DNA of 64,000 bases. Source: a virus. Below, piece after piece: positions 50,337 to 57,522 of the stretch (the first letter of the stretch is position 1; each line of letters opens with the position of its first letter). Made by a program: the position numbers and the translations under genes. The stretch is from IMG/VR virus record IMGVR_UViG_3300037418_001469, one strand, 5' to 3'. Under the pieces are notes generated by a model. That model was not told the origin of the DNA and did not search any database. It saw only the letters and a list, made by a program, of their open reading frames with translations.

Positions 50337-51176
50337 TTGATAGATATGGAAAAATATTTAAAATACTTTTTAAACTATATTCGAACTGAAAAAAACTTAT
50401 CCGAGAACACAATTATTGGCTACAAAAAAGACCTAGAGCAATATCTTGATTCTTGCAATATCAAAGTATTGGAAGACCTAAATAAACACACGATAAGAGA
50501 TTTCCTCGCTAAGATAAATGACCTAGCACCAACGACTAGAAGACGTAAGCTAGCATCTATCAGAGGATTTTTTGGATTCTTATTTGATGAAGAAATTATT
50601 AATAAGAATGAATCGTTAAGCATTAAAAATGCTAAGATTGATAAAAAGTTGCCAGTGATTATGTCTGTAAATGAAACAGCTACCGTAATCGACTCAGCAT
50701 GTAGCAAACAAGATAAAGCAATTCTAGAAACGCTATATGGAACTGGTGCTCGTATATCTGAATTAGTTGGAATCCAAATATCTGATATTGACTTTGATGC
50801 TAGAACAGTTAGGTTGTTCGGAAAAGGAAACAAAGAGAGAATTGTACCGATTAACAATGCATCATTAATCGCCATAAAAGAACATCTGGATTCTAGAGGT
50901 TTCAATAGTCCTTATGTATTCGGTAGTAGAGTTACACCTAATCATCCAATGACAGCTAGAAATGCTCGTGAAAGAGTTTATAAGAGTGGTGGCAAGGAAG
51001 TTCACCCACACATGTTTAGACATAGCTATGCTACTCACTTGCATGCTAACGGTGCTAGTATTATGGATATCAAGGAAATGTTAGGTCATGCTGACATTAG
51101 CACAACACAAATATATACTCATGTAGCAAATGAACAAATGACTAGAACATATCGTCATTCTCACCCAAGGGGTTAA
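50337..51176 (+). CDS. XerC/D-like tyrosine recombinase
   Basis: TGARISEL, GKGNKER, HPHMFRHSYATH, LGHADISTTQIY catalytic motifs. Confidence 0.9.
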   Translation: MIDMEKYLKYFLNYIRTEKNLSENTIIGYKKDLEQYLDSCNIKVLEDLNKHTIRDFLAKINDLAPTTRRRKLASIRGFFGFLFDEEIINKNESLSIKNAKIDKKLPVIMSVNETATVIDSACSKQDKAILETLYGTGARISELVGIQISDIDFDARTVRLFGKGNKERIVPINNASLIAIKEHLDSRGFNSPYVFGSRVTPNHPMTARNARERVYKSGGKEVHPHMFRHSYATHLHANGASIMDIKEMLGHADISTTQIYTHVANEQMTRTYRHSHPRG

Positions 51177-51795
51177 GACTCTCTCTGAGTTTCTTGACTC
51201 CTCTTTTTGTTGCCCTAGAAACATTAGCTTGGTTAATATTTAATTCTTCTGCAATCTCTTCTTGTTTCATATCTGATAGATAATACATATTAATCAAATC
51301 TTTTTGATGTATTGTTAAACTGTCCAATCCTTGCTCAATAATAATTTTATCTATAACCGAGTTTTCATCAAAATCTTCTGAACCTAGAACACTCAATAGC
51401 TCATAGTCACTAATAATCCCAATTCCACTTTTCTGTGAATTAGCAGATATCCCATCAATACTAATAGTTCTTCTATCTTCTTTAAAGTAGTTCATTTCTT
51501 TTTTATAGTAGTTAAATATTCCGTTTCTCGATTTAGATGTTATATGTCTAATTGCAGAATCATCTAGTCTTTCATCATAGTCAAGCATAGCTTCGATTAA
51601 TTTTAAATCAATTACTTGACATACATCATCAAATTCCACACCTTTCCCTGCGAATTTTTTTGCTAATGACTTTCTAAAAGGCTCAAACATATTTAAAATT
51701 TCCATCATAGCATCTTCTCTTTTGAACTCATTTTCGTCTGCTTGAGCAACCTTAATTAAGTTTTTTACTACTACTTCAATCTCTTGTTTTGTCAT
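51142..51795 (-). CDS. phage RNA polymerase sigma factor (sigma70 family)
   Basis: region 2-like FDDVCQ..LIEAMLDYD; region 4 HTH QEEIAEELNINQANVSR. Confidence 0.8.
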   Translation of the reverse strand: MTKQEIEVVVKNLIKVAQADENEFKREDAMMEILNMFEPFRKSLAKKFAGKGVEFDDVCQVIDLKLIEAMLDYDERLDDSAIRHITSKSRNGIFNYYKKEMNYFKEDRRTISIDGISANSQKSGIGIISDYELLSVLGSEDFDENSVIDKIIIEQGLDSLTIHQKDLINMYYLSDMKQEEIAEELNINQANVSRATKRGVKKLRESLNPLGENDDMF

Positions 51796-54712: not shown

Positions 54713-55219
54713 ATGGATTTTAAGACACCAAAGGTGGTATGTGGAGTATGTAACGGAAAAGGTGGATTTAGAAAACTAAAAGATAATTTCCTTGATACAA
54801 ATTGGATTGATTGTGCATACTGTGAAGGATATGGTTTTGTTGATGACACTACCACCGAAGAAGAAGTAACAACACACCTTACATATAACCGATATAAAAC
54901 TAAGTTAGAATCATCATTCAGTATACTAGGAGAATTAAAGGTAGTCACATCAGAATCAGAAAAAACAGATATGTTTGTAAAAATTCTTCCATACAACAGA
55001 AAAAACTGGACTACCTTAATTAAGCACATATTAAAATTCTCGCATCATCACGATAAAATTAAAGTACTTCCTAAGCAAGCGTTTTATCATACAGATGATG
55101 AAACCCACTATATTGATTGGGAATTGCACATTACAATGCATACCCTAGAAGATTTAGATGGACTATTAGAACTAGTTCGCATGTATAATGACACATTAGC
55201 AGTAGGTGGTGGCATATGA
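54713..55219 (+). CDS. hypothetical protein with DnaJ-type zinc knuckle
   Basis: CGVCNGKG and CAYCEGYG. Confidence 0.65.
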   Translation: MDFKTPKVVCGVCNGKGGFRKLKDNFLDTNWIDCAYCEGYGFVDDTTTEEEVTTHLTYNRYKTKLESSFSILGELKVVTSESEKTDMFVKILPYNRKNWTTLIKHILKFSHHHDKIKVLPKQAFYHTDDETHYIDWELHITMHTLEDLDGLLELVRMYNDTLAVGGGI

Positions 55220-55986
55220 AATGTCTAGGATTAACATTCTTAGGAACTGGCAGTGCCTTCTCAAAGAAATTCGGAAATAACAGTGCGGTGGTTACGATAG
55301 GAGATAAGAATTTACTTATTGATTGCGGAAGAACAACACCAAATGATTTAGATAAATCTCAATTCTCATGGTCAGACATTGATGCTATTTTCATCACTCA
55401 TATTCACGGAGACCATGTATTTGGATTGGAAGAGGCAGGATTCATGGGTAGATTCGTTCTCAATAAAAAACCGCATATTATTTTCCCACATAAGAAGATT
55501 AAGCAAGACCTGTGGGAGAAAGTACTCAAAGGAACAATGATGCAAGGAGATTTAGACAGGAACATGACATTCGATGATTATTTTACATATGAAATTGTCG
55601 ATGAGAGAGAGCAATATTTCGAATTTAACGATGTAATGTTTTCTGTATTTTCAACACAACATGTCAAAAATAAAAAATCATATGGCTTAATTATTGGAGA
55701 GTATGATTATATAGTATATACATCAGACACACTTTTTGATAGTGAAATGGTAATTGCTTTCTACCAAGGTGGAGCACAAAAGATATTTCACGACTGTCAA
55801 ATGACAGATTACAAAGGAAAAGTACACGCATCACTAGATGAATTAGCTACATTACCAGAAGAAATTCGAGAGAAGACAGTTATTATGCACTACGGAGATG
55901 ACTTAGATGGCAATTTTACAAGAATTAAAGAATTAAAATTAGGAATAGCGTTGCCAAATATAACTCAAAAATTCGTAGTCAAATAG
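55216..55986 (+). CDS. apyc1: MBL-fold hydrolase, anti-Pycsar Apyc1-like
   Basis: GTGSAFSKKF.NNSA, LLIDCG, THIHGDH, GLEE, SDT.FD, FHDCQ, VHASLDEL, MHYGD match recalled Apyc1 motifs. Confidence 0.75.
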   Translation: MKCLGLTFLGTGSAFSKKFGNNSAVVTIGDKNLLIDCGRTTPNDLDKSQFSWSDIDAIFITHIHGDHVFGLEEAGFMGRFVLNKKPHIIFPHKKIKQDLWEKVLKGTMMQGDLDRNMTFDDYFTYEIVDEREQYFEFNDVMFSVFSTQHVKNKKSYGLIIGEYDYIVYTSDTLFDSEMVIAFYQGGAQKIFHDCQMTDYKGKVHASLDELATLPEEIREKTVIMHYGDDLDGNFTRIKELKLGIALPNITQKFVVK

Positions 55987-57005: not shown

Positions 57006-57073
57006 ACTTGGAGAGTTTGATTCTGACTTTTATTGGTTGGTGGTGGTTTTTATAGCCTCCACCTCCTTGTCAG
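57006..57073 (+). ncRNA. candidate small RNA with 16S rRNA-end-like sequences
   Basis: has its own promoter and no ORF; GGAGAGTTTGAT and CACCTCCTT; CTGAC/GTCAG stem. Confidence 0.4.
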
Positions 57074-57080
57074 TTTGTCC

Positions 57081-57109
57081 TTGACTTTTTTTTACTAGGG
57101 AGTTATAAT
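57081..57109 (+). promoter_or_regulatory. early sigmaA promoter
   Basis: TTGACT-17-TATAAT. Confidence 0.75.
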
Positions 57110-57140
57110 ATAAATATAATTCAAAGAGGAGATGGTCAGC

Positions 57141-57269
57141 ATGAAAAAAATAGACAAAGACCTAATGGCTAAAATGTACGTAGAGATGGGAGAAATCAAT
57201 GTCTCCATTTCCGAAGGAATTACAGAAGAAATCGTATGGCATAAGGAGGTAGAAAATAATGGCAACTGA
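57141..57269 (+). CDS. 42-aa MazE/NdoAI-like antitoxin mimic
   Basis: GAGGAG RBS; MKKIDKDLMAKMYVEMGEINVSISEG resembles recalled B. subtilis NdoAI C-terminal RDLMRRGYMEMAKINLNISSE. Confidence 0.6.
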   Translation: MKKIDKDLMAKMYVEMGEINVSISEGITEEIVWHKEVENNGN

Positions 57270-57522
57270 AAGAGAAGCAGTATTATCACTGTTGCTAGTG
57301 CAGTGTATCAAGCGACTTAGCAAGAATGGCAAACAAAAGGTACATATCACAAATGCAGAATTAAATAGATTAGTAGAAGGAAACTTTGAAGTTGATTTTA
57401 GCGAAAGCAATAGCGATAGATTTATTTTAAAATTAGTTAAAGGCGAACCGCTAGTTGGTCTCGAAGAAATTGTAGTTGAAGAAAATGTAGAGCTACCAAA
57501 AGAACTATTAGAAGAACAATAG
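57259..57522 (+). CDS. hypothetical protein
   Basis: AAGGAGG RBS. Confidence 0.7.
   Translation: MATEREAVLSLLLVQCIKRLSKNGKQKVHITNAELNRLVEGNFEVDFSESNSDRFILKLVKGEPLVGLEEIVVEENVELPKELLEEQ

Follow-up and report, generated by a model that had tools for sequence, protein, structure and literature searches.

A 42-residue open reading frame (ORF) at positions 57141 to 57269 (+ strand, stop codon included) of the 64,000-nt stretch of viral DNA analyzed here, which we call the window, probably encodes an early-expressed phage antitoxin mimic that binds and blocks the MazF toxin of the host. The ORF belongs to the phage MazE-like antitoxins and most likely acts as AimX does. The mechanism itself is already known from AimX of phage phi3T and YosL of SPbeta and phi3T, published in 2023-24, so the novelty implied by an earlier note on this DNA was overrated. 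What is new is the setting: an uncultured soil-phage lineage without arbitrium, a gene with its own early promoter, an Apyc1 gene two genes upstream, and an invariably overlapping gene for an 87-aa protein. Binding of the product to MazF is predicted by modeling, and MazF neutralization and early timing are inferred.

The window comes from a 126-kb IMG/VR virus record with an estimated completeness of 74% and a provirus label. The DNA has 36% G+C. Alongside a structural module and ten tRNA genes, it contains a block of early-type genes on the + strand, in the order thymidylate-kinase-like gene, metallophosphoesterase, 168-aa Cys-rich ORF, Apyc1, 3D-domain protein, 67-aa ORF, MazE-like ORF, and 87-aa ORF. 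The block is conserved in related contigs. The homologue of the anti-Pycsar cyclic-nucleotide phosphodiesterase Apyc1 (55216 to 55986, +; PF23023, E value of 7.9e-39, 134 bits against a cutoff of 50) lies in the same early + strand block and is syntenic in all related contigs; together, Apyc1 and the MazE mimic mark an early anti-defense block. Among the ORFs of the block, those of 67 and 168 aa and especially the coupled one of 87 aa are candidates for new anti-defense genes.

The residues that the earlier note had given for the ORF are exactly those encoded at 57141 to 57269, and the expression signals it had named were located as well. A Shine-Dalgarno sequence, AGAGGAG, can be read at 57125 to 57131 (+), 9 nt upstream of ATG 57141. 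An alternative start at ATG 57132 would give a protein of 45 aa and is the one chosen by gene callers elsewhere (P0002). ATG 57132 abuts the GGAG of the ribosome-binding site (RBS), whereas ATG 57141 follows the RBS after 9 nt, and on the basis of this spacing the likely start codon is ATG 57141, not 57132; the GAGGAG-N9-ATG layout is also found in orthologues. A sigma-A-type promoter, TTGACT-17 nt-TATAAT, matching the consensus at 11 of 12 positions, lies at 57081 to 57109 (+), where it would drive both the ORF and the overlapping downstream gene, and is kept upstream of the orthologues in related contigs L022, L023, L028, and L029. An extended form of the promoter, TTGACTTTTT...TATAAT, occurs four times in the window, in each case on the + strand and between 56971 and 58107; no copy was expected by chance (0 in 100 shuffles), so strong host-type promoters cluster around the ORF. 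About 68 nt without an ORF (57006 to 57073, +) lie between the 56971 promoter and that of the ORF and contain a GGTGGTGG...CCTCCACC hairpin. This stretch is kept, with changes, upstream of the L028 and L029 orthologues and is absent in L022 and L023.

The MazE-like ORF is a real, conserved gene. Close relatives, 68 to 83% identical and 42 to 47 aa long, are found at the same position in metagenome contigs. Differences per synonymous site exceed those per nonsynonymous site in comparisons with the L022 copy (pS of 0.40, pN of 0.15) and the L028 copy (pS of 0.60, pN of 0.13); judged by these values, the gene is under purifying selection. Scans of the Pfam, PHROGs, NCBIfam, and PADLOC libraries gave no match to the protein, a megablast search of the region against phage records gave none, a word-based search for longer, fused relatives found none, and nothing was confirmed in a species-genome scan with the helix alignment described below. 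PF27083 (MazE_antitoxin_C) is listed in the precomputed annotations of AimX-type and cellular MazE proteins; the precomputed Pfam tables hold no hit for window-type relatives.

The core of the ORF had been likened, by way of a stretch of NdoAI, to the toxin-binding helix of Bacillus NdoAI/MazE. The stretch was correct: HMMER aligns residues 5 to 25 of the ORF with residues 54 to 74 of EndoAI (PDB 4ME7, chain E). In a single-sequence search of the PDB, this chain was the sole match among 177,635 sequences, with an E value of 0.44 that is nonsignificant alone. Profile comparisons then bore out the likeness. An alignment of the four-member window subfamily (A1) gave the same chain as its best match in the PDB, with an E value of 0.0086. 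A second alignment (A2), consisting of AimX, the C-terminal parts of YosL proteins (YosL-C), and FADO-type sequences and containing no window-type sequence, was matched to A1 by hhalign with a probability of 96.7% (E value of 3.5e-10), and its profile, run against the six frames of the 126-kb genome, found this ORF as its sole match (E value of 7.1e-7). An alignment of all of these phage proteins, that is, the window subfamily, AimX, YosL-C, and FADO-type sequences (A3), provided the profile from whose matches 11 full-length MazE proteins with a ribbon-helix-helix (RHH) domain were taken (A4). Comparison of A1 with A4 by hhalign gave a probability of 95.2% (E value of 2.7e-8), in an alignment that covers only the C-terminal part of A4. 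The A4 set matches EndoAI over its full length at 4e-21 and AimX (PDB 8ANV, chain C) at 6e-8, and one of its members is located in a canonical alr-mazE-rsbR locus. A profile check against NdoAI, suggested in the earlier note, has thus yielded matches both to EndoAI itself and to the RHH-MazE set, and by these measures the similarity of the ORF to MazE/EndoAI is more than chance.

That the ORF arose by chance, or is a noncoding spacer before the 87-aa gene with a coincidental likeness to MazE, is an explanation that the very short length, the lack of a library match, and the single-sequence E value of 0.44 might favor, but it has to contend with conservation of the ORF, its excess of synonymous change, its own RBS, profile E values of 1e-7 to 1e-10, and the canonical motif in its orthologues. 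We regard it as extremely improbable; the profile matches, by hhalign and in the six-frame genome search, and the pS and pN values effectively refute it.

The predicted MazF-binding helix occupies codons 5 to 25 (57153 to 57215, +), as delimited by alignment A3, hhalign, the 4ME7_E alignments, and predicted contacts at residues 9 to 24. The ORF contains the M-x3-Y-x-E-M ... I-N-x-x-I pattern of the C-terminal MazF-binding helix of MazE, and residues M9, Y13, E15, M16, N20, and I23 are invariant across the window subfamily, AimX, YosL-C, and the FADO-type sequences. Residues M14, Y18, E20, and M21 of AimX are contact residues common to AimX and MazE (PMC10769878); they correspond, with the same spacing, to M9, Y13, E15, and M16 of the ORF. 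The substitution M14D abolishes MazF binding by AimX (PMC10769878), and Y18A abolishes its antitoxin activity (bioRxiv 10.1101/2023.04.27.537455). At the position where AimX, YosL, and MazE have an invariant glycine (MAKGY), the ORF has a methionine (MAKMY); orthologues have G, A, or M there, and three of them, P0009, P0011, and P0188, which lie in the same syntenic slot in related phages, have the canonical MAKGY(V/E)EM motif. P0009 matches SPbeta yosL directly in a tblastn search, and 23 of its 23 phage matches are to Bacillus phages. MazE and AimX have an acidic tail after the helix, of which the ORF retains only a loose version; in the ORF this segment also has to accommodate the RBS and start codon of the gene that overlaps it downstream. 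No RHH match was found, in agreement with the absence of this domain claimed earlier; a protein of 42 aa whose helix begins near residue 5 has no room for it.

A complex was predicted for the ORF, with its alignment, and two copies of Bacillus subtilis EndoA. The prediction, a check that the earlier note had proposed for the host NdoA, passed with a score of 0.84, whereas the best of three controls scored 0.02; this result shows likeness and may come from the predictor's memory of a like complex that has been solved (4ME7). Of 80 solved complexes, 58 reach the mark applied to the score, as do 2 of 110 mismatched pairs. Runs agreed in at least 72% of contacts, and the partner had a pLDDT of at least 63. 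Predicted contacts involve ORF residues 9 to 24, where they end, and both MazF copies, through residues 34 to 41 of one copy and residues 16 to 23, 48 to 57, and 76 to 79 of the other. This set includes T48 of MazF; a T48A mutant of MazF has no RNase activity (PMC10769878).

The closest functional parallels are phage proteins. [quoted passage not shown] Like the ORF, AimX is a phage-encoded stand-alone MazE C-terminal helix without an RHH domain, and it is monomeric. AimX binds and inactivates host MazF; for the ORF, binding is predicted only. AimX is encoded downstream of aimR-aimP and is controlled by AimR antitermination, whereas the ORF has its own sigma-A promoter in a record in which aimR was not detected. 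The ORF is also 9 residues shorter than AimX, has Met in place of the invariant Gly, and does not conserve the acidic tail; its phage is unrelated to phi3T, in which the 87-aa gene coupled to the ORF is missing. The ORF is not AimX in the strict sense, as no arbitrium system was found in the 126-kb record (74% complete) and the genes upstream of the ORF encode the 3D-domain protein and the 67-aa ORF. The C-terminal helix of YosL of SPbeta and phi3T (about 120 aa) is MazE-like, and the protein inhibits MazF in the course of the lytic cycle, but it also has an unrelated N-terminal domain of about 70 residues, which is toxic in its own right, and a place in a replication operon, whereas the ORF is a bare helix. 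The 42-aa ORF, with an in-frame stop upstream, does not contain the YosL-type N-terminal domain and so is not YosL in the strict sense either.

Cellular antitoxins differ in other ways. MazE/EndoAI (YdcD) of B. subtilis has the toxin-binding helix in common with the ORF; cellular MazE has, in addition, an N-terminal RHH domain for DNA binding and dimerization and is encoded directly upstream of mazF, and the ORF lacks both features. It is thus not a full member of the cellular MazE family. MazE of Staphylococcus aureus (56 aa; NF041459) is naturally short and consists mostly of the MazF-binding segment, but it is encoded with its own mazF. NF041459 gave weak matches to gp40 of phage FADO (E value of 3e-4) and to AimX-type proteins (E value of 0.015), and the ORF does not reach this model. 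Phage substitutes for antitoxins that disarm host toxin RNases are represented by Dmd of T4, directed against RnlA and LsoA, and by the pseudo-ToxI of PhiTE; the strategy is the same as that proposed for the ORF, but the molecules and target toxins are unrelated.

On this basis we propose that the ORF product is a minimal phage antitoxin mimic, a single amphipathic helix formed by about residues 5 to 25, whose own sigma-A-type promoter would provide for early expression. The helix would dock, as one copy, in the interface groove of a host MazF dimer (EndoA/PemK-type), mask the surface used for RNA binding and catalysis, and so prevent cleavage of transcripts; with MazF blocked, lytic development could proceed. 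Since the RHH domain is missing, the mimic would neither dimerize on DNA nor regulate a mazEF operon. The suggestion in the earlier note of an anti-MazF or lysis-lysogeny role is supported by the experimentally shown function of the homologues AimX and YosL and by the predicted complex. We found no avoidance of UACAU, the site of B. subtilis MazF, in the sense strands of the phage (observed/expected ratio of 1.07, 1.7 sites per kb), so the phage transcripts would be cuttable by MazF.

A mazF gene had been said not to be adjacent to the ORF, and none is: the downstream gene has no PemK match, and a search with PF02452 (PemK/MazF), which gave matches in control genomes, found none anywhere in the 126-kb record (74% complete). 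The lack of such a gene led us to reject a role for the ORF as antitoxin to a mazF carried by the phage itself.

The gene downstream of the ORF encodes an 87-aa protein (57259 to 57522, +) and overlaps the 3' end of the ORF by 11 nt. Its RBS, AAGGAGG (57243 to 57249, +), is inside the MazE-like ORF, in the last codons, which is probably why K-E-V-E is conserved near the C terminus of the ORF. The two genes form a conserved cassette: in every related contig examined, the helix gene and a following gene of 85 to 96 aa overlap by 8 to 11 nt. Neither gene was seen in two distant relatives (capsid 64 to 65% identical), the records of which are 71 to 76% complete. The 87-aa protein belongs to a family of 31 clusters, all unnamed, and had no match in Pfam, PHROG, PADLOC, or PDB sequences and no usable match in the ESM Atlas. 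AlphaFold2 models reached a pLDDT of 53 when 5 sequences were supplied and 65 when 24 were; a Foldseek search of the PDB with the latter gave nothing at an E value of ≤0.001, and its weak top matches were winged-helix regulators. A type II toxin is not supported as the identity of the 87-aa gene, given the lack of a toxin-family match or a significant fold match for the model with a pLDDT of 65; a new toxin fold is still conceivable.

That the ORF is invariably coupled to the 87-aa gene hints at something besides MazF, either a partner or a function. The helix might act mainly on a phage partner, most plausibly the translationally coupled 87-aa protein, in a toxin-antitoxin-like or regulator/anti-regulator module. 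An antitoxin gene that overlaps its downstream gene is the classic layout of type II toxin-antitoxin systems, the overlap of 8 to 11 nt is also present in a contig whose helix follows a fused N-terminal domain of 90 residues, and AimX, which also binds the phage protein phi3T_93, does so through the same helix that it uses for MazF (PMC10769878). The 87-aa protein, however, matches no toxin, PemK, PADLOC, or PHROG family and no PDB chain, phi3T_93 of 8ANV included, and its model has no significant fold match; furthermore, an unrelated partner would not require conserved MazF interface residues, and homologues of the FADO and AimX types have no 87-aa neighbor. We consider a mainly phage-directed helix unlikely. 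Equally doubtful, in our estimation, is that the helix and the 87-aa protein make up a new two-component module, for example, one in which the 87-aa protein is an effector, or a manipulator of the MazE/MazF circuit, that is held in check by the helix in parallel to phi3T_93; were it true, this arbitrium-free lineage would steer host MazEF in its own way, not by simple blocking. Inhibition of host MazF is the reading that we prefer.

The helix is widely distributed. The A3 profile, searched against 1.84 billion representatives, matched 154 clusters (50% identity) at an E value of ≤0.001, including proteins of 85 to 100 aa with an N-terminal RHH domain. Of 148 further representatives, 91 have up to 75 aa, 33 have 76 to 112 aa, and 24 are longer; phage origin is established for only some of the short clusters, and the contexts of few were read. 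Two of the short representatives outside the window lineage are arbitrium-linked AimX genes. The long class has at least two unrelated N-terminal domains, one of the YosL type and one helical, of about 80 residues. Fusions of the helix, which point to modular reuse of the MazF-binding segment, were seen in L019, L020, and L049 (5625 to 6008) and in P0010, P0019 to P0024, and P0187. ORFs of about 50 aa in SPbeta-like proviruses directly follow a 381-aa TPR protein and a 46-aa peptide that ends in SIIRGA; this order is the aimR-aimP-aimX arrangement.

By tblastn, we reached a 49-aa gene in Bacillus phage FADO and relatives. This MazE-C-like gene, gp40 of FADO (L001, 2501 to 2650), overlaps the start of a RecJ-like exonuclease gene, and a similar gene occupies the same place in PK-3, 2S-4, and PJN02; these are phages of the B. 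subtilis group, with genomes of 142 to 166 kb. FADO gp40 is annotated as hypothetical, and its counterparts in the other three phages are unannotated. Among cellular genomes, CP035485.1 has an alr-mazE-rsbR locus (L035) with a MazE gene and, in the usual place of mazF, 236 nt with no called gene; a separate pair of RHH-MazE and PemK genes lies elsewhere in the genome (L053), and the MazE of the alr-mazE-rsbR locus may be an orphan.

Phage MazE mimicry thus reaches beyond the SPbeta-like arbitrium phages, to distant, uncultured large soil phages, and in the lineage described here the mimic is wired as a plain early gene beside the known anti-defense gene Apyc1. The MazF-binding helix of about 20 residues occurs bare, in several unrelated fusions, and in RHH-MazE proteins, which suggests a mobile module and, further, that phages of Bacillota commonly face MazEF as a barrier.

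A MazF inhibitor could, as in phi3T, serve mainly to tune a lysis-lysogeny or carrier-state decision instead of plain counter-defense. MazF activity promotes lysogeny in phi3T (PMC10769878), IMG/VR classes the record as a provirus, and a tyrosine-recombinase gene is present in the window (50337 to 51176, +). Weighing against such a role are the constitutive-looking sigma-A promoter, which is not antiterminated, and the failure to find aimR in the 126-kb record (74% complete) either by protein search or with PF22871. A related capsid gene, moreover, was not found in the species-genome scan or in 401 sampled genomes of the class searched, which leaves lysogeny of the lineage unsupported; the capsid protein had no match in plasmids either. 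Tuning of lysogeny appears to us a still less probable main role than action on a phage partner, and counter-defense by MazF inhibition the better account. The recombinase itself has 279 aa and matches a PHROG integrase (E value of 6e-59); its gene converges on a sigma-factor gene (51142 to 51795, −) and overlaps the end of it, an arrangement that bears on a temperate versus plasmid-like lifestyle.

The phages of this lineage have genomes of 150 to 175 kb. Their capsid protein shares 27% identity with that of Bacillus phage G, and their terminase about 30% with those of Bacillus megaterium phages; the nearest cultured phages, with only 27 to 30% identity in capsid or terminase, infect Bacillus. 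A weak hint to the host comes from a related contig that was binned with a Psychrobacillus metagenome-assembled genome (MAG); in the same slot, this contig encodes a protein of 127 aa whose helix is preceded by an unrelated N-terminal domain. Two short motifs are depleted in the 64-kb window. The palindrome GCWGC is absent (GCAGC, 0 observed and 40 expected; GCTGC, 0 observed and 22 expected) and CCTGG nearly so (2 observed and 21 expected), a pattern that resembles avoidance of the host's restriction sites and could serve as a clue to the identity of that host.
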